Below, one piece after another: positions 627 through 51,488 of a stretch of DNA of 64,000 nucleotides. Made by a program: the position numbers and the translations under genes. Position 1 is the stretch's first letter. Each line of letters opens with the position of its first letter. The stretch is taken from positions 1-64,000 of the IMG/VR virus record IMGVR_UViG_3300031951_009873; one strand, 5' to 3'. The DNA comes from a virus. The notes under the pieces are model-generated. The model had not been told where the DNA came from. It made no database searches and was given only the letters and a program-made list of their open reading frames with translations.

Positions 627-629
627 TAG

Positions 630-4278: not shown

Positions 4279-7200
4279 ATGGCAAATGAATTTATAGCCA
4301 GAAAGGGACTGGTTGTCCCTACTGGTAGTATAATAGTTTCATCTGGTTCGGTTACCGCAAATGATTTCTTCGGAACTGCAAGTCGAGCAGTTACCGCATC
4401 ATTTGCGTTAAACGCAGCAGGTTCAGGATTCCCCTTCAGTGGTAGTGCAGTCATCACCGGGTCACTTAATGTAACCCAGGCGGTGACTGCATCGTTTTTT
4501 AAGGGTGACGGGTCACAAATTACAGGATTAAATACTTTAAGTAGTTCAGTAAATATTGATACACATACTTTCCAAGGTGATGGCTCTACCTCAAACTTTG
4601 TATTATCTCAAAGTTATGAACTGTCCTCATTATTTGTTTCTGTCGATGGATTATCGCAAACAAGTATCACAGACTATAGTATATCAACAAACATTCTTTC
4701 ATTTGTAGAAGCACCGCCTTCACAATCAAGTATATTAGTTAGAGCCTTAATAAATGTAACCCAAGGTGCTACGGGTTCATTTAGTGGTTCATTTCAAGGT
4801 GTAATTACAAGTGCAAGTTATGCAGAAACCGCTAGTTTTGCACTAACCCCATCAGGAACTTCTGGTAGTTCGGGAACGTCGGGTACATCGGGTAGTTCTG
4901 GAAGTACAGGCACCTCGGGTTCATCAGGTAGCACAGGAACTTCGGGTAGTTCCGGTTCAACAGGAACGTCTGGTTCATCTGGATCAAGTGGTATAGATGG
5001 TACTTCAGGAACATCAGGTTCATCAGGAACCTCTGGTAGTTCTGGTTCTACGGGAACCTCAGGTAGCTCGGGAAGTACAGGAACGTCTGGTAGTAGTGGT
5101 AGCACGGGTACCTCTGGTAGCTCGGGTTCAACCGGTACATCGGGTAGTTCAGGCACATCTGGTACTTCTGGTTCAAGTGGGACTGCTGGTTCTTCTGGAA
5201 CAAGTGGTACGCTTACATTAACGGGTACCACAGATAATGGATTGATTACTCTCAATGGTTCAGCTCCAAATGCAACCGTAGAAAGTAATCTTACCTTTGA
5301 TGGTAATTCGTTAGTAGTTACAGGAGCAATCACAGCAAGTACTATACGAGTTAATGGTACTGCATCATTACGATATTTAGAAACACAATTTGTAACCGCT
5401 TCAGTTATCTATGAAAGTGGTTCTACTAAGTTTGGTGACAGCTTTGATGATGTACATCAACGCACTGGTTCACTAGAAATTACTGGCTCACTTGTAATAA
5501 ACGGAACTTCGTATACCGCAGCAACTTCTGGAACATCAGGTACTGCAGGAAGCGCGGGCACATCAGGAAGTAGTGGTACTTCTGGAACATCTGGTTCATC
5601 AGGCAGTACCGGAACCTCAGGCAGTTCAGGAACATCAGGCAGTTCTGGTTCTTCAGGAACAACAGGAACTAGTGGAAGTAGTGGAACTTCGGGAGAAAAT
5701 GGAAGTAGCGGAACCTCTGGTAGTTCGGGCACAACAGGAACTAGTGGTAGTGCAGGAACTTCAGGTTCTTCCGGTAGTTCGGGTACTTCAGGAAGCGCCG
5801 GTACATCAGGTACCGCTGGTAGTAGCGGTAGTACGGGAACCTCTGGAAGCGCAGGAACAGCTGGTAGTAGTGGAACAAGTGGTTCTTCTGGGTCAACGGG
5901 CACCTCAGGGTCAAGCGGTTCAACTGGAACTTCTGGTAGTAGCGGCTCAACAGGAACATCCGGTAGTAGCGGTAGTACAGGAACTTCAGGTTCATCCGGA
6001 TCAACAGGTTCATCTGGAACCAGTGGAAGTTCGGGAAGTACTGGTACAAGCGGATCAGCAGGAACAAGTGGTACTACCGGTAGCTCAGGAACATCAGGTA
6101 CATTAACGCTCACAGGCACCACTGATAATGGATTAATTACATTAAATGGAACCGCACCAAACGCAACCGTAGAAAGCAACTTAACATTTGACGGCAGTAC
6201 CTTAACAGTGGTTGGTAATGAAGTTATATCCGGTTCCACTACAATTACAGGTAACCTCACAGTTCTTGGGTCATCATCAATTGGATATCTTACCCAAAGT
6301 CAATTAAATATCGGTACCAATTTAATCACAGTTAATGCACTCAATCCTGAATTCCGTTTTGGAGGATTAGCTGTTATTGATTCAGGATCATCACCAAAAG
6401 TTAGTGGTTCGTTATTATTTGATTCCATTAATGACCAATGGATATTCATTCATCAACAAGTAGCAGGGGCAGGTACTACATCATCCGTATTATTAATGGG
6501 CCCGCAAACCTTTAATGATGTTGGGAACGAAACGAATTTAAGTACAAATAGAATTCCAAAGAGTAATAACTCAGAACATCTCTCAGACTCCATCATTACG
6601 GATAATGGGTCGCAAATAACTGTTAGTGGGTCGGTATCTGCATCCTCATTTACAAGTTCTATTTCAAACGGAGTTGGCTTCTTTGGCACCGCATCTTATG
6701 CATTAACTCCTGCGGGAACTGCGGGTAGTAGTGGAACATCTGGTAGCTCTGGCACATCAGGTTCATCAGGTAGTACAGGAACCTCTGGTAGCAGTGGTAG
6801 TGCGGGAACCTCTGGCTCGTCTGGAAGTACGGGAACATCAGGAAGCTCAGGAACAACAGGTACTTCTGGAAGTTCGGGTACATCTGGAGCAGGGGGAAGT
6901 TCTGGAACCAGTGGAACAGCTGGTAGTTCGGGAACTACTGGAACTAGTGGCAGCGCAGGAACTTCTGGTTCGGCAGGAACTAGTGGTAGCGCAGGTACAT
7001 CTGGAACCGCAGGTAGTTCTGGTACTTCTGGAGCAAATGGTTCATCTGGCACTTCTGGCTCATCAGGAAGTAGTGGAACTACGGGAACCAGCGGTAGTTC
7101 GGGTACTTCTGGAGCAAACGGTAGTTCCGGTACCTCTGGTAGTTCAGGAACATCAGGCAGTTCTGGTACGTCGGGCTCATCAGGAAGTAGTGGAACTACG

Positions 7201-9138
7201 GGAACCAGTGGTAGTTCAGGCTCCACAGGAACAAGCGGTTCTTCTGGTAGTACAGGTACATCTGGAAGTAGCGGTAGTACTGGAACATCTGGATCTTCTG
7301 GAACAGCTGGTAGTTCTGGTACTTCTGGGGCAGGAACCATTAGTGGCGGAGCAGCCAACAGAGTTGCATTCTACTCAGGAGAAACATCACTCACAGGAAG
7401 TGCAAATCTTACCTATGATGGTAATTCACTAGTAGTTACTGGTCCTCTTACTGCAAGTGCTTTAAGAGTTAATGGTACAGCATCAATTAGATATTTAGAA
7501 ACACAATTCGTAACATCATCTATTATCTTTGAATCTGGTTCTACAAAATTTGGTGATAGTTTTGATGATGTTCACCAAAGAACTGGTTCGCTAGCAATTA
7601 CCGGTTCGTTAACTATAAATGGTACCTCGTATACAGCAGCAACTTCTGGAACATCGGGTACTTCTGGTAGCGCAGGTACATCAGGCACCAGCGGTAGTTC
7701 AGGTACCTCTGGTAGTTCTGGTTCTACGGGAACAAGCGGTTCATCAGGTACATCCGGATCATCTGGCACATCAGGTAGCTCAGGATCTACAGGTACCTCA
7801 GGCTCATCTGGAACCACTGGTACATCAGGTTCTTCTGGAAGCACTGGTTCATCGGGTACCTCGGGTTCTTCTGGAACTACGGGCACATCTGGAAGTTCTG
7901 GTACCAGTGGCTCTTCAGGAAGTTCTGGTACAACCGGGTCTAGTGGTACCACGGGAAGTAGTGGTACTTCGGGTACATTAACATTAACTGGTACTAAAGA
8001 TAATGGTTTAATTACCTTAAACGGGTCTGCCCCAAACGCCTCGGTCGAAAGTAATCTAACCTTTGATGGAAATTTATTAACCGCTATCGGTAGTGGTAAT
8101 TATCAAGCAGCAATTAGTGGAAGTACTGCTGCAGCATATACACAATTGTATATCAACGGTACTGGTCGTGCTTATGGCATTGGTGTTGGTAACGCAAGTG
8201 AAACTACATACGGTGTAGCAAACGAATTCTTCCTATTTGACCACAATGCAGCAGCAATGCGATTGGCAGTTGATATCAATGGTAACATTGGTGTCGGTAC
8301 AACCAGTCCAGTAAACAGATTACAAATTGCGGGTAATGTCTCAGCGTCATCATATACCAGTTCTATTTCTAACGCAGTAGGATTCTTTGGTACCAGTAGT
8401 GTAGCAGTATCTTCGTCACATGCAACCACCGCATCATTCGCACTAAATGCTGGTGGAGCTGGTTTCCCATTCAGTGGTAGTGCAGTTATTACGGGTTCAT
8501 TGTATGTATCGGGTAGTAATATCTCTGGGTCATTTGTTGGCGATGGTAGTGGATTAACCAATGTAAACGCCGCACTGAATGTAATTGAATCTTCATTTGT
8601 TGGAGATGGTACCACCACATCATATTCACTGGGAGCTAGTTATCCAGCAAAATCATTAATTGTTACAGTGGATGGATTAAGATTTAATGCTCCAGACGAT
8701 TTCACTATGTCTGGAAACAATGTAGTATTTACCTCAGCACCACCATCTTCATCAACAATATTCGTTTCGGCGCTAATAAACACCGCAACAAATGTTACGG
8801 GGTCATTTAGTGGGTCATTCTTTGGTAATATTGCTAGTGCAAGTTTCGCAACTAGTGCGTCATATGTACAACCAAGCGGGTTACCATCTGGTGTAGTCTC
8901 AGCTTCTTCACAAATTAGTATAGTGGCTGATAACCATGCATTAGTGGGGGACGGGACCACTACTATATACACACTATCCCAATCGTATTCGCCGGCAATA
9001 CTAACGGTGTCGATTGATGGATTGGTAAATACATTGACGGAAGATTATACAGTATCTACGAATCAACTCACATTCGTTTCCGCACCTCCGTCCTCGTCAA
9101 ATATCTTGGTAAAAGGTATTAGAATAGCACTAATATAG
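4279..9138 (+). CDS. Long collagen-like (Gly-Ser/Thr) fibre protein (1619 aa)
   Basis: Four Gly-X-Y tracts separated by repeated globular modules; three GDG.T..(F/Y).L...V.(V/I)DGL...D(Y/F)...APPS.S.I domains; [10 protein letters not shown] fibre motif. Confidence 0.75.
4855..5214 (+). repeat. Gly-X-Y tract 1 (40 triplets, GTS/GSS/GST)
   Basis: Gly at every third residue, counted from the translation; no Pro. Confidence 0.9.
5530..6105 (+). repeat. Gly-X-Y tract 2 (~64 triplets)
   Basis: 9-nt period GGN-ACN/TCN/AGY repeats; length from coordinates. Confidence 0.9.
6715..7326 (+). repeat. Gly-X-Y tract 3 (~68 triplets)
   Basis: GTA GSS GTS... through GTS before GAGTISGG. Confidence 0.9.
7648..7980 (+). 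repeat. Gly-X-Y tract 4 (~37 triplets)
   Basis: GTS GTS GSA... through GTL. Confidence 0.9.
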
Positions 9139-9208: not shown

Positions 9209-11410
9209 ATGGCGATAACTAGACTTACCGGTGTATTGATTAAGAGCGGAAGTATTCCTACACATGCTTTAAGTGGTGGGGTAGTTTCTAGTTCGGCGCA
9301 GATTACCAGTTTACTACCCGCGGGCGCGGTTAGTAGTTCTGCACAAATCAATACTGGTTCATTTACTGGCTCTTTTACTGGTTCACTATTTGGCACCGCG
9401 AGTTATGCAGACTTTGCATTAACTCCCGCAGGTACTGCTGGTAGTTCGGGTACATCTGGTTCTTCTGGAACCAGTGGCTCATCGGGTACAGCAGGAAGTA
9501 GTGGAAGTACAGGTACCAGTGGAACATCAGGTAGTTCTGGAACAGCCGGTAGTAGTGGAACCTCAGGATCATCTGGTACAACAGGCTCTTCAGGAAGTAC
9601 AGGTACATCAGGAAGTAGCGGTTCTACTGGCACGAGCGGCTCATCAGGTTCTACCGGAACATCTGGTAGTAGCGGAACTTCTGGTTCTTCGGGTACCAGT
9701 GGAAGTTCTGGAAGCACTGGCACAAGCGGGTCATCTGGAACCGCAGGAAGTAGTGGAACAGCCGGTAGTTCAGGTACTAGTGGAACACTCACTCTTACAG
9801 GCACCACCGACAACGGATTAATCACACTTAATGGCTCTGCACCAAACGCAACCGTAGAAAGCAACTTAACATTTGACGGAAGTACCTTACGAGTTACGGG
9901 GTCCGCAATTATTACTAGTAACTTGACGGTACTCGGTACATCTTCTATTAGTTTTGTTTCTCAAAGTACCTTAGATATTGGTACCAATGTTATTACCGTT
10001 AATACATTATCTCCTGGTACAAGATTCGGTGGTCTATCGGTAATTGACTCTGGTTCATCACCAAAAGTAAGTGGTTCAATATTCTTTGATTCTCTCAAGG
10101 ACGAATGGATATTCATTCATCAACAAGCAGCAGGTGCAGGAGTTACCTCATCTGTATTTATGATGGGCCCACAAACATTTGATAGTGTTGGTAATGAACT
10201 TACTTTAACTACAAATAGAATTCCAAAGAGTCAAAATGCAGAACATCTTAGTGATTCTATTATCACTGATAATGGGTCACAAATTACTGTCGCAGGTACC
10301 GTATCAGCTTCCTCATTCACAAGTTCGATTGTAAATGGCGTTGGATTCTTTGGTACCGCATCATTCGCATTAACTCCAGCAGGTACAGCAGGTTCCTCTG
10401 GAACATCTGGAACCGCAGGAAGTAGTGGAACCGCTGGCTCATCGGGTACAGGCGGCAGTTCTGGTACCACGGGTACATCTGGTAGTAGTGGAACAGCGGG
10501 AACATCTGGTAGTTCAGGAACATCTGGTGCAGCAGGTACATCAGGTAGTTCGGGAACCAGTGGTAGTTCAGGAACATCTGGTTCTTCTGGAACTACAGGT
10601 ACATCAGGTAGTTCGGGAACAGCCGGAACCGGCGGTAGTTCTGGTACATCAGGAGCAAACGGAGCAACAGGAGCAACGGGTGCGGCAGGAACCAGTGGTA
10701 GTTCTGGTACAGCAGGTACTTCTGGCGCTGGAACTATTAGTGGTGGTTCCGCTGACAGAGTAGCAATATTCTCTGGAGCTACAACACTCACAAGTAACAC
10801 AGGACTAACATATAGTTCACCAAGACTTACTGTATCTGGTGACAGTCCAAATATTTACTTAAACTCTGGTAATGACGATTCCAGAATATATTTCACGGGT
10901 CTAGATAGATATATCCAAGGTTCAGCTGGCTCGGCCTTAAAATTCATCACACAAGATGGTCAACGCGCCCATATGGATTCATTTGGTGTGTATGTTAATG
11001 CGGCACTTGGTGTGGGTTCTCAACCAACTACGGGATGGACTGGTGGTGAAATCCGCGCAACTAATGAAATTACCGCATACGCATCGGATGCACGATTAAA
11101 GAATTTTCATGGAACTATTCAAGATGCGGTCAAGAAAGTATTATCAATTAATGGGTACTACTTCACAGAAAACGAAGTGGCTAAGTCACTAGGATTCAAT
11201 AAAGATGCAATGCAAGTCGGTGTCAGTGCACAAGAAATACAAGAAATACTTCCAGAAGTCGTTGCACCAGCTCCTGTTAATAATGAATACCTAACCGTGC
11301 GTTACGAACGGCTTACTGCATTATTAATTGAAGCAATTAAAGAACAACAAGGCACTATTGACAAATTACAAGAAAGAATTACGATTCTTGAAACAAATAA
11401 TAAAGGTTAA
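9209..11410 (+). CDS. Collagen-like tail fibre with C-terminal Peptidase S74 intramolecular chaperone
   Basis: Two Gly-X-Y tracts; C-terminal [10 protein letters not shown]...[15 protein letters not shown]...[20 protein letters not shown] is the S74 autocleaving chaperone signature. Confidence 0.85.
9431..9790 (+). repeat. Gly-X-Y tract 5 (~40 triplets)
   Basis: GTA GSS GTS... through GTL. Confidence 0.9.
10382..10723 (+). repeat. Gly-X-Y tract 6 (~38 triplets)
   Basis: GTA GSS GTS... including GAN GAT GAT GAA. Confidence 0.9.
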
Positions 11411-11422: not shown

Positions 11423-11599
11423 ATGGGTATAATACCAGCAACCGGTTCGGAAATTGCGATGGGGCGGGTGCGAAACGCATACGGCCTTTCGGGACAAGTC
11501 GCACTGCGTGCCAATCTAGGTGCTCAAATTGGTATTACTACTGGTCAAATTCGTTTGTCTATTGATTTCGGTGGCAGAACCACACCAAATAATTATTAA
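11423..11599 (+). CDS. Small fibre-associated protein (58 aa; not in ORF track)
   Basis: GGGAG RBS; MGIIPATGSEIAMGRVRNAYGLSGQVALRANLGAQIGITTGQIRLSIDFGGRTTPNNY*; resembles the short P.SG.I proteins that follow S74-fibre genes. Confidence 0.7.
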   Translation: MGIIPATGSEIAMGRVRNAYGLSGQVALRANLGAQIGITTGQIRLSIDFGGRTTPNNY

Positions 11600-11608: not shown

Positions 11609-11637
11609 TTGACAAGTTTAGTAGTATAATATATATT
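11609..11637 (+). promoter_or_regulatory. sigma70-type promoter at the start of the modification island
   Basis: TTGACA-N17-TATATT in the intergenic region upstream of 11670. Confidence 0.7.
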
Positions 11638-11669: not shown

Positions 11670-12128
11670 ATGAGTGAAATAACATTCGAAACATTATTGG
11701 CAGCAGTAAATACTAACCCATCGGAATACGAAGAAAAGTATGTCCGATGGGTTTCTATTGGGTATGACAAAAAAGTTTTGGCAGAACTATTGTATGAATT
11801 ACAATATCTGAAAGAGAAAGACGAATGGCCAGAACGAATTAAATTTTTAGAAGGTATTCTCGCCCAATATAATCCACAACATTTATTGAATTTATTAAAC
11901 GGTGAAACGCAAACGACACGATTTGCGTTAATTGAAAAGTGGTCACGTCAAGGGGCTATGGAAATACTCATCTTTGATAAGTACAGTATCGATACATTAA
12001 ATACTGTCACACAGTTTCCATTGGCAGATTATCAACTCTTTGTCAAACGAGTACAAGAAATTGTCACTATGATTCGTGAAATCACCAGCCAAGCAGCAAC
12101 ATTAGCATCCGGAGTCGCCGGGCTATGA
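11670..12128 (+). CDS. Hypothetical protein (helical)
   Basis: 152-aa ORF with AAGGGG RBS; overlaps the next gene (ATGA). Confidence 0.6.
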   Translation: MSEITFETLLAAVNTNPSEYEEKYVRWVSIGYDKKVLAELLYELQYLKEKDEWPERIKFLEGILAQYNPQHLLNLLNGETQTTRFALIEKWSRQGAMEILIFDKYSIDTLNTVTQFPLADYQLFVKRVQEIVTMIREITSQAATLASGVAGL

Positions 12129-12823
12129 AGAACATCTACGACTTGACGATTTGGCAAACTAGACCTACAAAATTAGCGATTCTTATTCCATGCAGAGAAT
12201 CTGTATATAGTTTATTCACTGCGTCCTTAGTTGAGTTGGTCAAGACTACGACGATGGCAGGAATAGATGTTCATGTCATTTATGACCAAAGTACGATTTT
12301 ACTCACACAACGAGAAAGATTGGCACAGCAAGCATTAGCGATGAAAGCAGATTATGCTCTGTGGTTGGACTCGGATATGATGTTCCCAAGCACCACCGCG
12401 ATGCGTTTAATGGGACATAATGTTGATATCGTATGTTCCAACTATATGAAACGGTCGGTCCCACTTCAAACAGTCGCATATCCAGAACGAGGAAACTGGG
12501 AAAACTGGTTACCACTAGAGGGTGACCAAGAACTGCAAGAAGTGGAAGGTGTGGGTATGGGATGTATGATGATGAAAACCGAAGTACTGAACAAGCTGGT
12601 TCCTCCATATTTTGCCTTTGAATATAAGGACAAAGAATGGCACGGGGAAGATTTCTTTTTCCAGAGTAAATTGCGCAAAGCAGGATATAAGATACTCGTA
12701 GATATGAATCTCAGTTTCCAAGTTCGCCATGTAGGACAATGGGCGTTTGGGCCAAGTATTGCTACTAATGAAGAACAACGAATTAAGAGACATACAAAAA
12801 AGGTAAAGAAAAATGCTGAATAA
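12125..12823 (+). CDS. GT-A fold (GT2-like) glycosyltransferase
   Basis: ILIPCR, LWLDSDM (DxD), GVGMGCMMM, HGEDFFF and HVG motifs. Confidence 0.75.
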   Translation: MKNIYDLTIWQTRPTKLAILIPCRESVYSLFTASLVELVKTTTMAGIDVHVIYDQSTILLTQRERLAQQALAMKADYALWLDSDMMFPSTTAMRLMGHNVDIVCSNYMKRSVPLQTVAYPERGNWENWLPLEGDQELQEVEGVGMGCMMMKTEVLNKLVPPYFAFEYKDKEWHGEDFFFQSKLRKAGYKILVDMNLSFQVRHVGQWAFGPSIATNEEQRIKRHTKKVKKNAE

Positions 12824-41908: not shown

Positions 41909-41909
41909 T

Positions 41910-42614
41910 ATGAAACAAAAACTATTTCATTATGGGTGTTCGTTCACAGAAAACATTCGTTCATTTAAACTACATAACTTGTTTACGGACAAGTATGATT
42001 ATCATAATCACGGTTTAGCTAGTTCCGGTAACGGATTGATTTTTGATACTTTTAAGAAAACCGCAGAATCAGATTCTATAGCTATTTTACAGTGGTCATC
42101 TCTTACTCGTCCTCGGGATGAAAATTATAAAATATTAGAAACGTCTGATAATCCATTGTATGATTATTTGGAAGAATGGTATGGTACCTTATCCGAAGCA
42201 AGAGAATTTTCCAATAAAAATAATATAAAACTAGTACAGTATATTGGATGGGCTGAGTGGAAGGACTCTGAGTTAAACGATTATCATAGAAATAAACTTC
42301 AATCGTTTGGTATACATTGGTTTAAGTCTAAAAAGCAGTGGGACATAATTGCATCAAATTGTTTTCAATTTGAGGATCCTTACGAATGGAGTTCTCCTCC
42401 CAGACAGTTACCAGATGGAGAATATTTCCTTTGGTCAGATATAGAATGGGGCGGCATGAGTGAATGGATTAGATCAAATATAGAGATACACGATAGATAT
42501 AGGGGATGGACGGATGACACAGTTGCGGGAACCACATATTATGACCCGCACCCATCGGAGTATGCTAGTATTCAGTTTATAAAGGAATTTTTATTAAAAA
42601 CATTGGAAATGTAA
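41910..42614 (+). CDS. SGNH-like protein
   Basis: YGCSFT, SGN..I, QWSS..R, GGM.EW, DPHPS. Confidence 0.55.
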   Translation: MKQKLFHYGCSFTENIRSFKLHNLFTDKYDYHNHGLASSGNGLIFDTFKKTAESDSIAILQWSSLTRPRDENYKILETSDNPLYDYLEEWYGTLSEAREFSNKNNIKLVQYIGWAEWKDSELNDYHRNKLQSFGIHWFKSKKQWDIIASNCFQFEDPYEWSSPPRQLPDGEYFLWSDIEWGGMSEWIRSNIEIHDRYRGWTDDTVAGTTYYDPHPSEYASIQFIKEFLLKTLEM

Positions 42615-42615
42615 G

Positions 42616-43413: not shown

Positions 43414-44195
43414 TAAATAAAAAAACAGAATGGGATTTTAATAAATCCGAATATGGATTTGGCAGAACTAAAATTGATAATTTCTTGGACGAAAACACCG
43501 TTCGGGCTTTATATGAAGAATGTGTAAACGCACCAAAGGGCGGATGGACTGTGTTTACTCGCGCGGGTTCTCGTATGGAAGAGTTTAACGACTTGATTTC
43601 TTTACCGACCGCACACAGGATTACATATGATATTATGCACTCCGGTGAGTTCTTATATGAACTAGAACAAATGACTGGTATCGTTGGATTACTACCAGAC
43701 CCACATTTAGTTGGTTCGGGATATTCGATTATCAGAAATGGTAACACACTTGGGTGCCATTACGACTTTAACTGGAATGACCGTATCCGATTACATAGAA
43801 AATTGACATCATTGTTGTACATTACCCCAGACTGGCAAGACGAATGGGGTGGACATATTCAATATTATGATGATAATATAGATGTTAATCCGAACGCAAA
43901 ACTAATTGAATCGGTGGCACCAAGATTTAATAGATTTGTTATCAACGAGAATATTAAGCACGGACCATATCACAGAGTAAGTGCGGTAAATGCACCAGAT
44001 GATATTGGTCGGTGTGCTATCAGGTTCTTCTATTATATCAGTACTTCTGATCCAGATAAAGACAATCCACCACACAGAAGTACTTATAAATCCAACGAAT
44101 ATTCACATCACAAGCTATATGAAGAAGAAACTTGGGATGGGCATTTCGTAGGAAATGGCGGGGAAGACTACGGATATAACCACACGAATAAATAA
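43410..44195 (+). CDS. 2OG-Fe(II) oxygenase (2OG-FeII_Oxy_3-like)
   Basis: L.PDP.L.G.G, HYDFN (HxD), LLY..P.W..EWGG, P.FNR, YHRV, R.AIRFFYY. Confidence 0.85.
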   Translation: MINKKTEWDFNKSEYGFGRTKIDNFLDENTVRALYEECVNAPKGGWTVFTRAGSRMEEFNDLISLPTAHRITYDIMHSGEFLYELEQMTGIVGLLPDPHLVGSGYSIIRNGNTLGCHYDFNWNDRIRLHRKLTSLLYITPDWQDEWGGHIQYYDDNIDVNPNAKLIESVAPRFNRFVINENIKHGPYHRVSAVNAPDDIGRCAIRFFYYISTSDPDKDNPPHRSTYKSNEYSHHKLYEEETWDGHFVGNGGEDYGYNHTNK

Positions 44196-44842
44196 TGTAT
44201 TGTGTTTTCCACTTACCGAGAACAGGCTCAAGATATTTACACAGTTTAATTAATAGTAGCTTGTCATATCTTGACCCAAGACACATAGGTACACATTTAG
44301 AACCATTCAATCCTGAGTTCAACACTTTAAATGATATTGAACATAAGTTTGAAGAGTTCACTAATAACGAACCACCGACAACCGTGAAAATGGTTATCAA
44401 TCATTATCCGTGGTTAGCGGATAAATTCATACAGCACCAAAAATACACTACGATTTTTATAAAACCTTTAAATTATAGAAAACGTTTATTGAAAGCACTG
44501 GTAGAAAAACATTTCAGAACATACAGTAACGGAACGAATAGAAAGGATGTAAGAGAGCCATTTGTGGGTAAATTAAAGTTTTCTGATGAATTAATAGAAG
44601 AACGTTTTTTTCATTACAAACTTCATATGGAATATGAAACACGATGCGACTATGTTTTTTATGATGAGTATTTATTCACGCATACAACTGACGTATTAAC
44701 TAAATTGAATTTACCATTAGTTACTACAAGATATAAACGGGTGGCACCATACTATTCAGATGAAGATATGCTAGAAAATATTGATGAGTTCAACAAACAA
44801 TACGATAAACTTAGTGTAAAAATTTTTGGATATGTTGTATGA
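44195..44842 (+). CDS. Sulfotransferase-like P-loop protein
   Basis: N-terminal LPRTGS (5'-PSB-like), EPFNP; paralog of 45437. Confidence 0.5.
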   Translation: MYCVFHLPRTGSRYLHSLINSSLSYLDPRHIGTHLEPFNPEFNTLNDIEHKFEEFTNNEPPTTVKMVINHYPWLADKFIQHQKYTTIFIKPLNYRKRLLKALVEKHFRTYSNGTNRKDVREPFVGKLKFSDELIEERFFHYKLHMEYETRCDYVFYDEYLFTHTTDVLTKLNLPLVTTRYKRVAPYYSDEDMLENIDEFNKQYDKLSVKIFGYVV

Positions 44843-45420
44843 TAACAAATGAATTGTTAAAAATAGAACGTATCAAACCTACTGATATGGTAGGTATAAT
44901 GTTGTCTGGTGGAATGGATAGTGCATTATTATTATATCTACTAGCTAAAAATTTAACTAATCAAATAATTCCGTTCACTGTTCCAAAAACAGATGGTGCG
45001 AAACATTACGTCGTACCGATTGTTACGTGGGTAAATAATAAACTAAATAAAAACATACCAGAACCACAGTTGATAGGAAATCCATCAGTATATCATTCTC
45101 AAATAATAAACCATTCTTTAAAGGAAATAGAAGAAATGTACGATGTTTTATACTTTGCAGGAAATTCATATCCAGAAAATATATTGCCTGGCGGACCCAA
45201 TCGTACTAAAAGAACAAATTCCAAACATTTACAACCATTTTTTGAGTTATATAAAACAGATATCTTACGAGGATATATAACTTATGATATAATGGATTTA
45301 ATATTACTAACTCATACGTGCACAGAATTAGAATATGGTAGATGTAATGTCTGTTGGCAATGCAAGGAAAGAGAATGGGCCTTCAAAGAACTAGATATAT
45401 TAGACAGAGGGATACAATGA
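44839..45420 (+). CDS. QueC-like PP-loop ATP pyrophosphatase
   Basis: LSGGMDS; PF...KT.I; THTC....RCNVCWQCKER.WA Zn motif. Confidence 0.7.
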   Translation: MITNELLKIERIKPTDMVGIMLSGGMDSALLLYLLAKNLTNQIIPFTVPKTDGAKHYVVPIVTWVNNKLNKNIPEPQLIGNPSVYHSQIINHSLKEIEEMYDVLYFAGNSYPENILPGGPNRTKRTNSKHLQPFFELYKTDILRGYITYDIMDLILLTHTCTELEYGRCNVCWQCKEREWAFKELDILDRGIQ

Positions 45421-45436
45421 TAATAGAGATATTAAT

Positions 45437-46072
45437 ATGTATTGTATAGTTGCATTACCTAAAACTGCTTCTACACTTACATGGCACATAATTGATGACG
45501 CACTGAAACGAAATAATTTAAACTGTGATTACGGAGATATAGAACCATTTAATCCATATAATAAAAATTATACACCTAGATTAGAAAACCAAGAAATTAT
45601 TTATCAACGTTTGTTGATTAGTAAACCGTTACCATTGATAAAATTATTAACTAACTATAACTACAATATATTTAATTGGTTTAATAATTCACCGTATCAA
45701 TTGATTTTTTTAAAACCAAAAAACATTAGAAAACAAATACTTGGTTCATTAATAGGCAACGTGACAAAAAATTATTTTGGTATAAGAGAAGAACGATTGG
45801 AGTTGAAAGGTAAGTTAAAATTTGAAAGATATAAAATAGAACAAAAAGTGTTCGCATACAAAAAACATATGAGACTAGAACGATTCTGTAAATACAGTTT
45901 TTACGATACAGAAATCATAACCAATCCAAATTATTTATTAGAAACTTTAAAGTTACACAAAACAGAAACAGTATATAATAATTACACACTACCAATTATC
46001 AGCGATGATGATATGTTAGAAGATATTGATGAGTTTAATAAACTATATGAGGAGTGTATTAATACATTATGA
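45437..46072 (+). CDS. Sulfotransferase-like P-loop protein
   Basis: LPKTAS, EPFNP, IFLKP.N.RK; DDDMLEDIDEFNKLY resembles the C-terminus of 44195. Confidence 0.5.
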   Translation: MYCIVALPKTASTLTWHIIDDALKRNNLNCDYGDIEPFNPYNKNYTPRLENQEIIYQRLLISKPLPLIKLLTNYNYNIFNWFNNSPYQLIFLKPKNIRKQILGSLIGNVTKNYFGIREERLELKGKLKFERYKIEQKVFAYKKHMRLERFCKYSFYDTEIITNPNYLLETLKLHKTETVYNNYTLPIISDDDMLEDIDEFNKLYEECINTL

Positions 46073-46290
46073 CAGTTCATATAAAAAGACATATTGCAAA
46101 AGCAATTACATATAGAATAGTAGGTACCTTGACAACATTTATTATTTCGTATATATTTACGGGTAGTATATCTCTATCATCCGCGATAGGGGCCACAGAA
46201 TTAATAGTCAAACCCGTCAATTATTTTTTACACGAACGGGCGTGGTATAAGTGGATTAAATTTGGTCTTACTAATAAGAACGAGGAATAA
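46069..46290 (+). CDS. DUF2061 family small membrane protein
   Basis: RHIAKAITYRIVGT...K...YFLHERAW..I.FG. Confidence 0.8.
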   Translation: MTVHIKRHIAKAITYRIVGTLTTFIISYIFTGSISLSSAIGATELIVKPVNYFLHERAWYKWIKFGLTNKNEE

Positions 46291-46293: not shown

Positions 46294-47058
46294 ATGAGAA
46301 TTTTGGTTATGGGATTGCCTGGGTCTGGAAAGACTACATTATCTAAGGTATTGGCGGAAAAGTTAGATGCCGCTTACTTCAATGCAGACGAAGTACGGAA
46401 ACAGTTCAACGATTGGGACTTTTCTGAAACTGGTCGTAAACGTCAAGCATATCGGATGCGGGAACTTTGTGATATGTCAGAAACGTATCATACGGTGGCA
46501 GATTTTGTCTGTCCCACAGAAGAAACCCGTGAACTCTTCTTACCAGATTTTATTGTGTTTATGAATACAATAGATGCTGGGAGATTTGAGGATACCAATA
46601 GAGTGTTTGAGGTACCCGAAAAGGTAAATGTATTGGTGAATGGATGGATAGACACAAATACACAAGCAGATATTATCATTGAACAAATCAAGAAAGTGGA
46701 CGTACATTTTGGTTGGCAGAATCCTACGGGACTGATGATTGGTCGGTTCCAACCATTCCACGATGGGCACTTGAAGTTATTTGAGACTATCTTGGAGAAG
46801 GAAGGTCAGGTACTTATTGCGGTCAGAGACACCTATAATACCGACGAAAAGAACCCATTCAATTATGTGGAGGTTATCGAAGGAATCCACAAGAAGCTGG
46901 AAAATAAGTACCGTGGAAAATACTATATAATGTCTGTCCCGAATATCACTGGGGTCTATTATGGTCGGGATGTGGGATATAAAGTCGAGAAAATCAATCT
47001 GGACCCACAAACTGAATCGATTTCTGCTACCCAAATTCGGAAGGAAATGGGGAAGTAA
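46294..47058 (+). CDS. Adenylyl-sulfate (APS) kinase-like + HxGH nucleotidyltransferase fusion
   Basis: GLPGSGKTT, NADEVR..DWDFS..GR.RQ, DFVCP, FE.P; then GRFQPFHDGH, YGRDVGY, ISATQIR. Confidence 0.8.
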   Translation: MRILVMGLPGSGKTTLSKVLAEKLDAAYFNADEVRKQFNDWDFSETGRKRQAYRMRELCDMSETYHTVADFVCPTEETRELFLPDFIVFMNTIDAGRFEDTNRVFEVPEKVNVLVNGWIDTNTQADIIIEQIKKVDVHFGWQNPTGLMIGRFQPFHDGHLKLFETILEKEGQVLIAVRDTYNTDEKNPFNYVEVIEGIHKKLENKYRGKYYIMSVPNITGVYYGRDVGYKVEKINLDPQTESISATQIRKEMGK

Positions 47059-47061
47059 ACG

Positions 47062-47070
47062 ATATTTATT
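47062..47070 (+). promoter_or_regulatory. Late-promoter-like motif ATATTTATT
   Basis: One mismatch to ATATTTATA, directly upstream of ATG 47074. Confidence 0.3.
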
Positions 47071-47073
47071 AGT

Positions 47074-47640
47074 ATGCAAGTAAATGTACCTGCGAATTGT
47101 GAAAGAATAAATGTTTTGTTTTCTGGAGGGGCAGATAGTTCACTATTGGCGTATCTGTTGATAAAGCAAAATACTGATATACCGATAGTTCTTCATTTTA
47201 TGAAACATAGGCTGGATTTTCAGAGTCCACACATGACTAACTGCCACAATTGGTTAGAACGACATTTTAATAAGAAAATTTTGTTAAATGGATGGGGAAA
47301 GACATTTATTAGACAAGCAGTTGAAATGATACTCATAGACTTTCCAGGATATGTGTATAGTGGGTGTAATAAGGTTCCTGAAAACGTATTTGTTCCAACG
47401 GTTATTATTCCGTACGATACCCCGCCGGTACGTGGTACTGAATATAATGAGTTTCATAAACGTCCGTTCATAGAAATGTTAAAGCCAGAGTTATATAAAA
47501 TATACCAGAAAGAAAATATTTTAGATTTATTTAATCTATCTTTTTCTTGCGGGGCTCCTGTAAAAAATGAAGATGGAGTAAATGTTCCGTGTGGGGGTTG
47601 TTTTTTCTGTATGGAACGCGTATGGGGAATGCAAAGTTAA
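47074..47640 (+). CDS. QueC-like PP-loop ATP pyrophosphatase
   Basis: FSGGADS; RPF...K; SFSC...PCGGCFFCMER.WG. Confidence 0.7.
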   Translation: MQVNVPANCERINVLFSGGADSSLLAYLLIKQNTDIPIVLHFMKHRLDFQSPHMTNCHNWLERHFNKKILLNGWGKTFIRQAVEMILIDFPGYVYSGCNKVPENVFVPTVIIPYDTPPVRGTEYNEFHKRPFIEMLKPELYKIYQKENILDLFNLSFSCGAPVKNEDGVNVPCGGCFFCMERVWGMQS

Positions 47641-47663
47641 TTATACACTAGTTTGGAGATTTT

Positions 47664-49163
47664 ATGTCTGTATATAATGTAGTTTACACCGGAGACACAT
47701 CAAATCTTGTTACCAGTCTTACCTCCGCAGGTATCACTGTTAACAAAACATTTGAAGCTCTTAAGGTTTTAAATGTTACCTCGGATAGTTCTGATTTTTC
47801 TCAATTTGCACAAATACTTGTAGTTGAGGAAGATATAGAAACCACGCCTGTGTTGGGTGCTTGGGCATTAAATAGAGTAAACAGTAAGATGTTACCTATG
47901 AGAAATGTATATACCCCAAGAAATTATGGCGATAACGTGGTTGTGTATGTTGTGGACTCCGGTATCGACTGGACACATCCAGAACTAACACATCTTACTC
48001 CAAACAATTTATATTCATATGATGAAAATTTCCAAGACATTATAGGTCACGGAACTGCTATTGCTAGTTTAGTTGCGGGAATGGTAGTGGGTGCATCTAA
48101 GTACGCCGTCTTAAAATCAGTAAAAATTCAAAGTGGAGTTCCCATACCAGTTAGTGATTTATTAACTGCGTTCAATGTAATACTTACTGACCACAATGTA
48201 ACTCCAACAGTTGTAAAAGTTGTAAACTGTTCGTGGTCAGTTGCAAAAAGTCAAATTCTTGATTTAAAAATTCAAGAATTGAAGGACGCGGGATTGGTAG
48301 TAGTTGCGTCGGCAGGTAATACTGTGTCAGATGCAAACTTACTGTCTCCTGTGGGATTAAACACCGTAATAGGTGTTGGTGCATGTGATGCATACGACAG
48401 AGTAATTAACTGGGGTCCAGCTGCAGGGTCAAACTGGGGGCCTGATGTAGATATTACTGCGCCAGGAATAGATGTAGAATATGCAAATGTTTCCGGTGGA
48501 CTTATGTTGGGGTCAGGTACATCATTTGCGGCAGCTCTAGTTAGTGGATTAATCTGTCAATATATCTCCGCATATCCAACAAAAACAGCAGCAGAAATAC
48601 AAAGTGAATTCCTTGCCGCAGGTTTGCCGGATATGTTGTTTAGAAACGAAACAATATATGGTACTACCCCCAATCTTTTAGCACAAGCTCTAGCACACGA
48701 AGAATTATTCACTTCACCGACACAAGTTTATTACAAAATACAACGTGGAACGGAATTGATTATTCCTATAACCGTGTTATCTCCTGCAGTAGCCGTACGT
48801 ATCGATGATATTTTATTTGGTACACACGTACGAGATTGTTTACCGTGGGTGACTAGAAATAGTAATGGTGAGTTGGTAGTTTCACCACCAGCAGATTTGT
48901 TAGTTGGTGGGTATCGTATGTTTTTAGAAGCATTAGATGAAAACAATCAATCGTTAGAGATACGAGGAATTCGTTTTGGTGTGTACAATATAGACCCTAA
49001 TGAAGTGGATTCAAGTGAACCAGATCAATATTATAGTCATCAAGAAGATGGTACAGTTGTAGTTCGTTTGGACGCATGTGTGTCTAGTTGTTTTGATACG
49101 TGTTCTGAAAGTTTCAAAGAAGGTCAATGTGCTTGTATTGGTGGTGGATGTAGTACTTTTTAA
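47664..49163 (+). CDS. Subtilisin-like S8 serine protease with propeptide and Cys-rich tail
   Basis: VVDSG (Asp), GHGT (His), SAGN, GTSFAA (Ser). Confidence 0.9.
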   Translation: MSVYNVVYTGDTSNLVTSLTSAGITVNKTFEALKVLNVTSDSSDFSQFAQILVVEEDIETTPVLGAWALNRVNSKMLPMRNVYTPRNYGDNVVVYVVDSGIDWTHPELTHLTPNNLYSYDENFQDIIGHGTAIASLVAGMVVGASKYAVLKSVKIQSGVPIPVSDLLTAFNVILTDHNVTPTVVKVVNCSWSVAKSQILDLKIQELKDAGLVVVASAGNTVSDANLLSPVGLNTVIGVGACDAYDRVINWGPAAGSNWGPDVDITAPGIDVEYANVSGGLMLGSGTSFAAALVSGLICQYISAYPTKTAAEIQSEFLAAGLPDMLFRNETIYGTTPNLLAQALAHEELFTSPTQVYYKIQRGTELIIPITVLSPAVAVRIDDILFGTHVRDCLPWVTRNSNGELVVSPPADLLVGGYRMFLEALDENNQSLEIRGIRFGVYNIDPNEVDSSEPDQYYSHQEDGTVVVRLDACVSSCFDTCSESFKEGQCACIGGGCSTF

Positions 49164-49189
49164 AATATGTATAATATAACAGTTATTAT

Positions 49190-49615
49190 ATGATACGAGT
49201 GTATACCGGAGGAACATTTGATTTATTTCACTATGGTCATATGAACTTCCTCCGGCAGTGTTCTGAGTTAGGTGATGAGGTGATAGTGGCATTAAACACT
49301 GACGAGTTCATAGAAAAATATAAAAATCAGAAACCTATACTGTCATACGCAGAACGTTATGAGAGTTTAATGGGTTGCAAATATGTCACTCGTATAGTAA
49401 AAAATTTGTCAAGTGAGGATAGTAAGCCCACCATCTTGTCAGTACAACCTGATATCATTGCAATTGGAGATGATTGGAAACATAAAAACTATTATAAACA
49501 AATGATGTTTACTGAAGAATGGCTTCGAGAACATTACATTGAATTGGTGTATTTGCCATACACCTCTATTATTTCTACCACTATTTTGAAAGAACGTATT
49601 AGGTATGGAAAATAA
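49190..49615 (+). CDS. TagD-like (glycerol-3-phosphate) cytidylyltransferase
   Basis: YTGGTFDLFHYGH, NTDEF, ER, IGDDW, YT..ISTT. Confidence 0.85.
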   Translation: MIRVYTGGTFDLFHYGHMNFLRQCSELGDEVIVALNTDEFIEKYKNQKPILSYAERYESLMGCKYVTRIVKNLSSEDSKPTILSVQPDIIAIGDDWKHKNYYKQMMFTEEWLREHYIELVYLPYTSIISTTILKERIRYGK

Positions 49616-50354
49616 AATTGCAGTTGTTATTCGTGGACAGTTCAGAACTTGGAATTTTTGTAAACATCAAACATTTCACGTATTTGAATCTCGCTATCCA
49701 GAAGTTGACTGGTATTTTATGTCCTGGGAAGATAGTGTCACAGACTCACAATTAGAAACACTGCAAGAAGATTTCAAAGACAGAAATGCCACAATAAAAA
49801 TACTTGTTCGTGATGAAACTGGAAATAATTCTTGGAATTCTCAACGTCGGTTAGGTTATGAATTACTAGGTAAAATGGATGCCTACACACAAATATTTGA
49901 AATGCGCCCAGATGTTTATTTGGAGATATCTGACACTCAACAATTTCCAAGTAACAACACACAATGGTATGTTACTGGCCTGAGAACTAGAGAAGAAGTG
50001 TGTAGGGAATCTGATAGATACATTCGACGAGTAAAGACCAGCATCAACGATTGGTTCTATGTGCAAAATCCTCTCATGTTCCAAAAATTCACTGAGTCAT
50101 ATACAGAGTCCATGAAATTGGAAGGACCACGGGCACAACTAGTTGATGTGGCTCTAGGAAACAACATAGAGATTACTGACATCTCTGATGTAGTGACCCC
50201 ATGGGTGCTTCGTCCCACATACACGCCCAACGCACTATTTGGTCATGAAAAATTATGGATGGGGATGGCCAGCAAAGAAAAAATAAAATTGTTGGAATCT
50301 TTGAATATTCAGATACAAGATTATAAAACTAATAACAGGTTTATTAGTATATGA
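49605..50354 (+). CDS. Putative glycosyltransferase-like protein
   Basis: KIAVVIRGQFRT N-terminus, D.Y...W, RPD and ND motifs typical of a viral/bacterial GT-like family. Confidence 0.45.
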   Translation: MENKIAVVIRGQFRTWNFCKHQTFHVFESRYPEVDWYFMSWEDSVTDSQLETLQEDFKDRNATIKILVRDETGNNSWNSQRRLGYELLGKMDAYTQIFEMRPDVYLEISDTQQFPSNNTQWYVTGLRTREEVCRESDRYIRRVKTSINDWFYVQNPLMFQKFTESYTESMKLEGPRAQLVDVALGNNIEITDISDVVTPWVLRPTYTPNALFGHEKLWMGMASKEKIKLLESLNIQIQDYKTNNRFISI

Positions 50355-51262
50355 AATATGAAAGAAGCATTTTGATAAGAAGAACTTTACCAACTGTTGA
50401 GTTTGCACCAAGCTATTTTGGGCAGGTGTTGAAATTTCCACACCAAGGTGTTAGAAAATTTCACAATAACTATGATAGTGAACGCTATCAGGATGTTGTA
50501 AAATTAGTTAGTGATTTGGAGATTTCTGAAGAGATATGGCCATATTATCACCTCGAAGAAGACTTTTACAAATACAACTCTTTTGGTTATCGTACTTATG
50601 AATTGGATGAACTACAAAAATCTTTTGATATTGCTATAGGTTGTTGTTGTGTGGAGGGGTTAGGGTTAAGGCAGGAAGAAACCTGGGTACACCATTATGA
50701 AAAAAATACTGGCAGACAACTTGTTAACTTAGGAAAAGGTGGTACTGGATCAAACTACATTAATATAAACTTAACTGCCTGGTTGAGTCATCGCCGGCGT
50801 CCAGACAGAGTTATCATTTTTTGGTCAGATCCAACCTCTAAAACAGTGTTTCGTGATAATGGTGATTTTACTACACTGCAATTTGGAAACCAACGTATAC
50901 ATCCAGTGGTTACTGATGGTGATGAGAACATAAATAAATGGTACAAAGCTGAACTACAAGACCGAGGCATTTCCAGTAATGAATTTGTCTTGACATATAT
51001 GAGCACAAATGTTATGTTACACAGTAGTGGTATAGATGTTAGAAACTTTTTTCCTAGCATTTATTGGAAAGAAGAAGATGTAAGAAGTATAGAACAGTTC
51101 ACCAACACCCAAGCTCACTATCTGGATTACAACAATGTTAGTGGCGGGTGGTCCTCTTTTCGTGATTATCAATATTTTCCTTCATCTGACATGACTCATC
51201 ATGGTTGGCAGCATCAAAAACCAATAGCAACTAAAATAGGTGAAATTTATGAAAATACCTGA
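50351..51262 (+). CDS. SGNH-like protein with Cys at the catalytic Ser position
   Basis: YKYNSFGYR, IGCCCVEGLG, NLGKGG.G, W....K, SD..H.G..H. Confidence 0.55.
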   Translation: MKYERSILIRRTLPTVEFAPSYFGQVLKFPHQGVRKFHNNYDSERYQDVVKLVSDLEISEEIWPYYHLEEDFYKYNSFGYRTYELDELQKSFDIAIGCCCVEGLGLRQEETWVHHYEKNTGRQLVNLGKGGTGSNYININLTAWLSHRRRPDRVIIFWSDPTSKTVFRDNGDFTTLQFGNQRIHPVVTDGDENINKWYKAELQDRGISSNEFVLTYMSTNVMLHSSGIDVRNFFPSIYWKEEDVRSIEQFTNTQAHYLDYNNVSGGWSSFRDYQYFPSSDMTHHGWQHQKPIATKIGEIYENT

Positions 51263-51488
51263 TATTAAAGAAATCATTACCGCTTGGCATCATGCAGCCA
51301 ACCCTACACCAGAACAACGAGAATTGGCTGAGTATCGTGGTTCTATTTGTGAGAGATGTGAACATAAAGAGTTCCGAACACTTATCAGATTCTATGTGTG
51401 TGGAGCATGTGGGTGTCCAATATCAAAGAAAATATACAGTCCCAAACCAGGCCCAGAAGCTTGTCCTAAAGAGAAGTGGGATAAATAA
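51249..51488 (+). CDS. Small Cys-rich Zn-finger-like protein (DUF6171-like)
   Basis: R..IC..C, C..CGCP...K, CP..KW. Confidence 0.65.
   Translation: MKIPDIKEIITAWHHAANPTPEQRELAEYRGSICERCEHKEFRTLIRFYVCGACGCPISKKIYSPKPGPEACPKEKWDK

Follow-up and report, generated by a model that had tools for sequence, protein, structure and literature searches.

A 45-gene glycan synthesis and tailoring island behind proline-free collagen-like tail-fibre genes of a freshwater T4-like myophage

The 64,000-nucleotide stretch analysed here (hereinafter the window; positions 1 to 64,000 of the IMG/VR virus record IMGVR_UViG_3300031951_009873) makes up the initial 64 kb of one viral contig of 80,474 bp, which has no terminal repeat and carries all its genes on one strand. 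The subject of this analysis is a pair of collagen-like tail-fibre genes and the large island of co-oriented genes behind them (11670-51488), for which glycosylation of the fibres, or of the virion, is the reading favoured below. The phage is a freshwater T4-like myophage of roughly 200 kb, and the locus is a hypervariable tail-fibre region of the type known as a host recognition cluster (HRC). Beyond the window, the contig encodes further tail-fibre genes and then a DNA polymerase, SSB, a UvsX-like recombinase, an exonuclease, a DnaB-like helicase and a ribonucleotide reductase (RNR). The nearest cultured phage is Microcystis phage Mel-JY01 (190 kb), with 52% identity in RecA, 62% in RNR and a syntenic replication block. 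Judging from CheckV-type estimates for relatives and from three complete relatives (183-202 kb), the full genome should measure close to 200 kb; the genome to which the window belongs is only about one third complete. The island accounts for half of the 80-kb contig and for about one fifth of a roughly 200-kb genome. Unless indicated otherwise, coordinates are window positions on the + strand, and genes are referred to by their first position.

The preliminary description of this DNA placed the island within the tail module, and both flanks agree. On the left, the window opens with the C-terminal end of a gp19-like tail tube protein (3..182), which shares 57% identity with the tube annotated in Mel-JY01 and 98% with a 162-amino acid (aa) open reading frame (ORF) of the relative L084. 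Downstream of the island are a hub-like protein that serves as the right anchor (56505..57257; phrog_150, 'baseplate hub') and a gene with a weak tape-measure match (57445). In Mel-JY01, the homologue of the hub-like gene directly follows the tube gene, so that window positions 288-56459, about 56 kb, represent extra DNA in the tail module. Four genes without assigned function (51546..54318), which come after the glycosyltransferase slot in all relatives, and a SNF2-family helicase (54573..56459; SNF2-rel_dom, 6.2e-33; 86-96% identical in close relatives) also intervene between the island and the hub-like gene, the helicase gene being the last before the latter. The tail module is an odd location for a SNF2 helicase, yet even the minimal relative L139 has it (53%).

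Three fibre genes precede the island. Fibre 1 (1758..4214; 818 aa), for which there are 76 related IMG/VR loci, has no Gly-X-Y tract. Fibre 2 (4279..9138; 1619 aa), with homologues in the relatives, contains 210 Gly-X-Y triplets in four blocks, and fibre 3 (9209..11410; 733 aa), which matches PHROG tail-fibre families, contains 79 triplets in two blocks. The total of 289 confirms the earlier estimate of about 290 hydroxyl-rich triplets: the 578 X and Y positions are occupied by 338 Ser, 183 Thr, 41 Ala, two charged residues and no Pro, i.e., Ser and Thr make up 90%. Runs of 37-69 triplets cannot have arisen by chance, and the repeat DNA is degenerate (63-87% matches); hence the periodicity is held at the protein level and does not represent a recent slippage array. 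The C-terminal 120 aa of fibre 3 match phrog_11011 and phrog_5668, a domain common to long tail fibres that, from its sequence, we take to be an S74-type intramolecular chaperone. The first 13 residues of fibre 1 (1758-1796) and fibre 2 (4279-4317) are nearly identical, so that these two fibres may compete for, or share, a single attachment site on the virion. Upstream of fibre 1 are genes for a 112-aa tail-fibre-assembly-like protein (288..626; phrog_1084, 3.5e-21; phrog_3304, 'L-shaped tail fiber protein assembly', 3.3e-15), which precedes the fibre genes in 60 related loci, and for a 359-aa fibre-module protein (630..1709) that has no family match, is kept in 65 loci, and has a C-terminus 27% identical to that of fibre 1.

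The gap of 259 bp between fibre 3 and the island contains a conserved 58-aa ORF (11423..11598), which is shorter than the initial ORF-length cut-off and recurs in this position in 26 loci from two lineages, where its aa identity reaches 100%. Judging from this conservation, it is a real gene, the first of what is denoted here the junction module. It adds to the 45 non-overlapping + strand ORFs of at least 80 aa that were counted at 11670-51488, in agreement with the original figure of about 45 co-oriented genes, from which it had been overlooked. The second gene of the module encodes a 152-aa protein (11670..12128) with no assigned family, 84-97% identical in island-bearing relatives and 75-79% in a lineage with non-collagen fibres. 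The third is a GT-A-type glycosyltransferase of 232 aa (12125..12823; Anp1, 5.8e-6; phrog_1574, 1.9e-20) that matches two 'glycosyltransferase' PHROGs and is 88-96% conserved. The fourth is a 369-aa protein (12813..13922) that combines an uncharacterised N-terminal domain with a C-terminal GT-A-fold domain in a predicted AF2 model (pLDDT 87.7). A Foldseek search with this model retrieves GT-A enzymes exclusively, including PcManGT, SunS/ThuS (glycocin S-glycosyltransferases), PBCV-1 A64R (a capsid glycosyltransferase) and Mimivirus R699. The 12813 protein has no Pfam domain, and a profile of its family, which is confined to viruses and found in more than 500 viral contigs, yields no meaningful match among PDB sequences.

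In addition to these two GT-A domains (12125 and 12813), the island encodes five GT10-like GT-B domains, seven glycosyltransferase domains altogether. The preliminary description had called the two groups GT2-like and GT10-like, and the predicted folds bear this out. In scans of the 45 island proteins against curated families, GT2, GT10, sulfotransferase and methyltransferase models give no match at E <= 0.01; the calls of these types are based on family profiles built here, two predicted folds and motifs. The GT10-like family, designated A1, consists of 16000, 17376, 26121, 39725 and the C-terminal part of 33010, with E283, E295-K296 and H193-R194 as invariant residues. Its AlphaFold model (pLDDT 82.8) has a GT-B fold and is most similar in Foldseek to 2nzw, the Helicobacter pylori alpha-1,3-fucosyltransferase (FucT; E 3.5e-5, TM 0.40-0.44); all other matches are GT-B enzymes as well, including the T4 alpha- and beta-glucosyltransferases, which score below the fucosyltransferase. 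The family matches no Pfam model at E <= 0.01, has no meaningful PDB sequence match and departs from the FucT motif (..FENS....Y.TEK). Given that neither the curated model nor the motif is matched, these proteins are described as GT10-like rather than as members of GT10.

A second expanded family, A2, comprises ten SGNH-like proteins, including the N-terminal part of 33010. Nearly all contain G-[CD]-S at residues 9-11, with the Ser at least 90% conserved, and H268 is near-invariant; the Asp expected three residues earlier is not evident in this divergent alignment (mean identity 20%). The best matches of the A2 profile in the PDB are only SGNH/GDSL esterases (seven sequences), albeit weak ones (best E 8.6e-4); no SGNH model of Pfam is matched, and 35102 matches DUF6071 at 2.3e-5. 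The 703-aa protein 33010-35121, in which an SGNH-like N-terminal domain is fused to a GT10-like C-terminal domain, hints that the two expanded families might act together on one substrate; a related-locus search with this fusion protein retrieved no relative.

The other island enzymes were announced as mostly sugar-nucleotide, transferase and tailoring enzymes, which is compatible with the half or so of the genes that can be named through Pfam and NCBIfam but overstates the rest, since 22 of the 45 match no Pfam or PHROG family. A PHROG scan of the 20 island proteins without a convincing Pfam match adds nothing except the GT-A enzyme 12125, and NCBIfam gives no equivalog-level assignment for any island enzyme. 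After the junction module, a first variable block (13919..19803) encodes a 221-aa candidate methyltransferase with a methyltransferase-like motif (13919), a weak radical S-adenosylmethionine (SAM) match (14586), two GT10-like proteins (16000, 17376) and a weak amidinotransferase/ADI-fold match (18784). It is followed by a conserved sugar-nucleotide core (19865..29795): a PhyH dioxygenase, an SDR, an RmlC-like epimerase, an SGNH-like protein, a thiamine pyrophosphate (TPP) enzyme E1-alpha-like subunit, a radical-SAM enzyme, a HAD phosphatase, a 333-aa protein of no recognisable family, a GT10-like protein, two GDP-fucose-synthase-like SDRs and a TPP beta-like subunit. The order of the core is kept at 43-94% identity in eight other contigs, including the complete genome G001. 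Two of the three extended SDRs are closest to GDP-fucose synthase, far under the equivalog cut-off, and the TPP enzyme is split between an E1-alpha-like (22870) and a pyrimidine-binding (29235) protein.

The three remaining blocks carry most of the tailoring candidates. The SGNH-rich block (29797..39561) contains SGNH-like genes 29797, 32075, 35102, 37883 and 38815, the 33010 fusion, a radical SAM/SPASM protein (30815), a NodU-type carbamoyltransferase (35833) and a 134-aa protein without assignment. The next block (39725..46072) encodes a GT10-like protein (39725), the N-terminal half of a DegT-type aminotransferase (40932), a four-helix membrane protein (41561), SGNH-like proteins 41910 and 42616, a 2-oxoglutarate (2OG)-Fe(II) oxygenase (43410), and two Stf0-like proteins (44195, 45437) with a PP-loop ATPase (44839) between them. 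The last block (46294..51488) consists of a P-loop kinase-nucleotidyltransferase fusion (46294), a PP-loop protein (47074), an S8 subtilase (47664), a TagD/RfaE-II-like nucleotidyltransferase (49190), a 249-aa protein without assignment, an SGNH-like protein (50351) and a Cys-rich protein (51240). Altogether, the island encodes three (or four) radical-SAM proteins, one of them with a SPASM domain, and two HxGH-type nucleotidyltransferases. The details of a sulfated, methylated, amidinated and aminated glycan that had been read from these genes have weak or motif-level evidence behind them. For example, the sole basis for a sulfotransferase reading of 44195/45437 is an Atlas lead to Stf0-named clusters at a score of 0.96, and a profile of this family finds no meaningful match among PDB sequences.

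The island genes are mostly packed tightly, with only three internal gaps of more than 100 bp, and three of the four best + strand sigma-70-like promoter matches lie in its few intergenic gaps: 11609..11637 (11/12), 33 nt upstream of the first island gene, 19808..19836 (12/12) and 46129..46157 (11/12). The promoter scan of the window finds no sigma-70-like promoter before the fibre genes. The T4 late-promoter motif TATAAATA occurs 11 times against an expectation of 11.1, i.e., without enrichment, and no terminator-like site is present between fibre 3 and the island. The G+C content is 34% in the island and 40% in the flanks and downstream; at 39%, the junction module is backbone-like.

The relatives were compared over the slot that is bounded by the last fibre gene on one side and by the 'post' genes, SNF2 helicase and hub on the other. 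In the window (G000) and in G006, G009, G012 and G020, Ser/Thr-rich Gly-X-Y tracts without Pro are followed by the junction module (79-97% identity) and a mosaic island of 27-40 kb with 3-5 GT10-like genes. G007 and G008, with fewer triplets, have the junction module and then a different island with four radical-SAM, two GT10-like and two SGNH-like genes. G005 has about 200 (GTS/GSS) triplets and none of the island genes of the window; its slot encodes a fusion of GT4 with an FkbM methyltransferase, a fusion of GT4, TibC-N, GT9 and methyltransferase domains, and a 2OG oxygenase. The (GPQ/GNQ)n collagen-like fibres of G013 and G014 are accompanied by DUF6445, a GT17-like protein, two GT2 enzymes and the same kind of 2OG oxygenase. 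In L139, where there is no Gly-X-Y tract, the fibre genes lead straight into the SNF2 helicase and hub genes with no ORF in between, and the contig contains no GT2 or GT1 match.

The tube-hub junction of Mel-JY01 is empty; at another genome position, this phage encodes a 1771-aa (GTS/GSS/GTR)n protein with about 200 triplets, followed by a 'structural protein' and then by a 1226-aa GT4+TibC-N+GT9 protein, with a weak cytidylyltransferase-like match a few genes further on. The TibC_1st matches in G005 and Mel-JY01 are under the Pfam cut-off. The 1771-aa + strand ORF crosses the ends of the linear record PP395634.1 (187738..190001 joined to 1..3052), which annotates in this place two antisense coding sequences on the - strand (1-651 and 739-2298) and only a C-terminal piece of the ORF (2519-3052). 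From the record's sequence, the collagen-like gene of Mel-JY01 thus seems to be unannotated.

Taken together, every readable (GTS/GSS)n-bearing phage has glycosyltransferases one or two genes off, in three non-homologous sets and at two genome positions. The proposition that glycosyltransferases adjoin collagen-like fibre genes therefore holds for all relatives with a readable region, and, because Mel-JY01 has both at another genome position, the fibre and glycosyltransferase pairing has moved together. The narrower claim of a specific coupling between (GST)n fibres and this island is not supported. The complete, 202-kb genome G001 has a homologous 27-kb island (sugar core at 43-77% identity, two full GT10-like genes and a weak third, SGNH-like genes) behind a 1746-aa fibre that ends in a fibre-3-type C-terminal domain; the triplets of this fibre number only nine and are rich in Ala, and its Ser/Thr content is ordinary. 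In the L188-L200 lineage, the junction module (70-83% identity) is found among fibre genes without a Gly-X-Y tract or a large island; there, too, it always comes after a fibre with the fibre-3-type C-terminal domain, as in other lineages. The co-occurrence predicted for relatives is accordingly confirmed in that (GST)n fibres always come with glycosyltransferases, and not in that G005 has other enzymes and G001 has the island without (GST)n. What is defensible is that the island is linked to tail fibres, not strictly (GST)n tracts to this type of island; fibres with (GST)n collagen are always accompanied by glycosyltransferases and represent one acceptor-rich class of fibres, and the island type is more widespread than this class.

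The best explanation of the locus is O-glycosylation of the fibres or the virion by a phage-encoded cytoplasmic system, to which a probability of about one half can be assigned. This choice rests on the adjacency of unrelated enzyme sets to such fibres, the presence of the junction module within fibre operons, the joint relocation in Mel-JY01, and the soluble nature of the enzymes. Several precedents exist: the Thr-rich collagen repeats of BclA are O-glycosylated, Riftia cuticle collagen is stabilised by glycosylated Thr, the AAH/TibC heptosyltransferases O-glycosylate Ser of repeat proteins in the cytoplasm, and virus-encoded enzymes glycosylate the Mimivirus fibrils, the PBCV-1 capsid and some mycobacteriophage virions. 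Under the proposed scheme, the island would be transcribed from its own sigma-70-like promoters, and the conserved core, with its SDR dehydratase/reductases, RmlC-like epimerase, split TPP enzyme, radical-SAM enzymes and HAD phosphatase, along with nucleotidyltransferases, would make an activated deoxy-sugar of an unusual kind, which probably carries a two-carbon branch. The junction module (58-aa ORF, 152-aa protein and two GT-A enzymes), located directly behind a fibre gene with a chaperone-like end, would initiate Ser/Thr O-glycosylation of the fibre; the five GT10-like GT-B enzymes would extend the glycan, and its tailoring would fall to the carbamoyltransferase, the Stf0-like proteins, about ten SGNH-like proteins and others. 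Dense glycosylation of the proline-free (Gly-Ser/Thr-Ser/Thr)n tracts might also contribute to holding the triple helix together. Strains would exchange the variable part of the island as cassettes, so that the glycan coat would vary along with the fibres. A bolder version of this scheme, which can be put forward only tentatively, is that the fibres form a new kind of collagen triple helix, without proline or charge pairs, that folds only when phage enzymes have coated it densely with an elaborate O-glycan, the latter, and not the protein, being a strain-variable host-contact or shielding surface that diversifies as glycosyltransferase and tailoring cassettes are swapped behind a conserved priming module. 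The preliminary description likewise had the phage coat its own fibres or virion, as an inference, with remodelling of the host surface as the alternative: a phage glycan synthesis and tailoring island in the tail module is what is observed, and attachment of the glycan to protein is what we infer.

A number of observations weigh against fibre glycosylation, beginning with the island of G001 and the junction module of the L188-L200 lineage, both beside non-collagen fibres. Genes of the 12813, GT10-like and SGNH-like families co-occur in many large and jumbo phages with no Gly-X-Y tract within 10 kb, and six pure G-[ST]-[ST] triplets in a row are absent from seven complete or near-complete large or jumbo genomes, six of which have such genes. 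The DNA pattern for six triplets is too strict, having missed Mel-JY01 too, so that its negatives in 27 other records are weak. The association of Ser/Thr-rich fibres with the island may reflect shared ancestry and a single origin of the island; a tree of the fibre 1 C-terminal domain gives no resolution. Moreover, the fold matches tell the fold of a glycosyltransferase and not its acceptor, and adjacency of fibres and island could reflect a hot spot that tolerates recombination.

The strongest competing explanation, itself unlikely, is remodelling of the host surface, whereby unusual sugars are added to host lipid-linked O-antigen, capsule or S-layer glycan, resulting in a block of superinfection or an altered surface, with the fibres being mere neighbours in a hypervariable region. 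This is the published interpretation of the glycosyltransferase-rich clusters in pelagi- and cyanomyophages (PMC7029224). It is also compatible with the promoters at the island blocks and none at the fibres, which would suggest expression apart from the fibre genes and a timing unlike that of late structural genes, and with the presence of the same enzyme families in large phages that have no collagen-like fibres nearby. Furthermore, the four-helix 115-aa protein 41561 next to the DegT-type half is loosely reminiscent of ArnB with ArnE/F. However, this protein, the only membrane protein among the 45 apart from one more hydrophobic stretch in 33010, matches no Pfam family and, in a profile search, no PDB structure. 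None of the 45 genes encodes an initiating phosphoglycosyltransferase, Wzx/Wzy, GT-C, GtrB, AT3 or a polytopic membrane protein, and the SGNH-like proteins are without the membrane AT3 partner used in periplasmic glycan acylation. Peripheral enzymes without transmembrane helices could nevertheless act on lipid-linked host intermediates, many O-antigen glycosyltransferases being peripheral proteins. The location of the junction module within fibre operons, and of the Mel-JY01 glycosyltransferase one gene from the collagen-like gene at another genome position, also count against host-surface remodelling.

It is also conceivable, if rather improbable, that the glycan decorates the virion but mainly on other proteins (capsid, sheath or other fibre domains), the (GST)n tracts being flexible or extended spacers. 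Virion glycosylation targets reported elsewhere, namely capsid and tail-tube proteins in mycobacteriophages and the major capsid protein in PBCV-1, count in favour of this possibility, as do G001 and the L192-type lineage, which have the island or the junction module beside non-collagen fibres. Against it stand the glycosyltransferases adjacent to (GTS/GSS)n genes in all readable relatives, the obvious acceptor field of 521 hydroxyl residues in strict register, and the requirement of a proline-free triple helix for a stabiliser.

Finally, the island could be hot-spot cargo unrelated to fibres or surface, with a product such as a small molecule (glycosylated or aminoglycoside-like), a modified peptide or a DNA hypermodification based on sugars. 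In line with this idea, the gene content includes radical-SAM enzymes, one with SPASM and another whose best NCBIfam neighbours are peptide maturases, two PP-loop ATPases and an S8 protease, besides a carbamoyltransferase, half of an aminotransferase and a weak match of the amidinotransferase type; the island differs from its flanks in G+C content and is mosaic between strains; and the GT-B model also matches the T4 glucosyltransferases. The radical-SAM, PP-loop and S8 part may yield a small molecule or a peptide, but this would leave the seven glycosyltransferases unexplained. T4-type DNA glycosylation is probably to be discounted because no gene of the ThyA family, to which the relevant hydroxymethylase would belong, is detected in the complete G001 genome or in Mel-JY01 (PF00303 has no match there or in the window's contig), and the T4 matches reflect generic GT-B similarity. 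Moreover, seven glycosyltransferase domains and about ten SGNH-like proteins suggest that an oligosaccharide is made and not a single small molecule, no gene for a precursor peptide was recognised, and the fibre adjacency is kept in at least five configurations; overall, this explanation is unlikely.

The description of the locus as a candidate new system is an overstatement, given that hypervariable islands with fibre and glycosyltransferase genes have been published for pelagi- and cyanomyophages. The host recognition cluster of these phages (Zaragoza-Solas et al. 2020, PMC7029224) spans 35-45 kb between VrlC and gp14 and encodes mainly GT8 enzymes, and its glycosyltransferase genes were interpreted as modifying the host O-chain, which is a further point against glycosylation of the phage's own fibres. 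Like the HRC, the present locus is a large, non-syntenic, strain-mosaic island with fibres and glycosyltransferase or lipopolysaccharide-type sugar genes in the structural module of an aquatic T4-like myophage; its content is mosaic among G006, G007, G009, G012 and G020, and L139 has no such island. Unlike the HRC, it lies between tube and hub, belongs to a freshwater lineage with a Microcystis phage, Mel-JY01, as the nearest relative, features GT10-like, SGNH-like and 12813-family proteins in place of mainly GT8, and is associated with proline-free Ser/Thr collagen-like fibres. The locus can be regarded as an exceptionally large representative of a kind of phage island that is known in part. 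Collagen-like phage fibres are already known, and so is virion glycosylation in some phages and giant viruses; what is new is the phage lineage, an island as large as 45 genes, its enzyme families, the conserved junction module, the Ser/Thr collagen-like fibres devoid of proline, and a comparison of relatives in which the fibres, and not the host, emerge as the probable acceptor.

Other known systems resemble the locus in part. The exosporium filaments BclA/ExsJ of Bacillus, with their rhamnose/anthrose loci, similarly combine a Thr/Ser-rich Gly-X-Y surface filament with an adjacent dedicated sugar and glycosyltransferase locus. However, BclA repeats are mostly GPT whereas the fibres here contain no Pro, the bearer is a virus and not a spore, glycosylation is a prediction, and the end of fibre 3, by its PHROG matches, is of the tail-fibre chaperone type and not BclA_C. 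Giant viruses and mycobacteriophages likewise have their own cytoplasmic nucleotide-sugar pathway, soluble glycosyltransferases and clade-specific gene sets, the pathway being predicted from the genes in the present case; in contrast to the giant viruses, the bearer here is a bacteriophage, and the proposed acceptor is a collagen-like tail fibre. To our knowledge, 45 genes are more than in any case of phage virion glycosylation. The TibC-N and GT9 domains that recall the AAH/TibC systems are found beside the (GTS)n genes of G005 and Mel-JY01 and not in the window's island. In serotype conversion by gtrABC/oac, phage genes also alter a glycan, but through a polytopic GtrA flippase, GtrB, GT-C and AT3, none of which is recognisable here.

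If the fibres are indeed glycosylated, this would be the largest known bacteriophage virion-glycosylation system and would offer a natural example of sugars stabilising a collagen-like helix that lacks proline. Host recognition clusters rich in glycosyltransferases, as carried by abundant aquatic phages, would then be reinterpreted as serving virion decoration rather than host O-antigen editing. Mel-JY01, with its (GTS/GSS)n protein and a multi-domain glycosyltransferase one gene away, makes the idea testable in culture. The island is also a source of uncharacterised families, namely the five-paralogue GT10-like GT-B family, the virus-only GT-A family (more than 500 contigs) and the tenfold-expanded SGNH-like family.

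Several other genes of the region merit brief mention. The 210-aa protein encoded within 40932-41908 corresponds to the N-terminal part of DegT only and overlaps the start of 41561, and this pair is 69-96% conserved in relatives. A phosphoribosyltransferase reading of 25133 was considered and is unsupported, a profile search of this family against PDB sequences giving no meaningful match. The prolyl-4-hydroxylase-like domain 2OG-FeII_Oxy_3, present in the window at 43410-44195, also ends the glycosyltransferase sets of G005 and G013 (L013:5367-5954; L109:20275-20859). Prolyl hydroxylation of a phage collagen is conceivable for the (GPQ/GNQ)n fibre of G013, judging by its repeats; the fibres of the window have no Pro and hence no hydroxylation target for this oxygenase. 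The PP-loop and S8 subtilase pair (47074-49163) is kept at 41-72% identity in other viral contigs (L168-L175), partly outside a fibre context, and may be a separate module. The 82-aa Cys-rich, zinc-ribbon-like protein (51240-51488) has homologues (53-57%) in hub-gene loci showing no island genes and is probably not part of the island.

As for occurrence, a megablast query of 40 kb from the window found no real match among 50,697 phage records, and a tblastn search of phage records with a post-island protein found none either. IMG/VR contains hundreds of relatives, and near-identical DNA is present in freshwater and lake metagenomes from 13 studies (2019-2025), so that this uncultured phage is widespread; none of the public runs listed as containing it is an RNA data set. 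Error-free contigs from four independent runs cover both the junction and the island, so that the arrangement of fibres and island is not an assembly artefact. In four independent lake metagenomes, the summed contig depth over the junction module (11500-12700) is several-fold above that of the rest of the island, and contig breaks cluster near 11320-11350, at the end of fibre 3. This pattern fits a junction module that is common to several co-occurring genotypes, with recombination at its borders.

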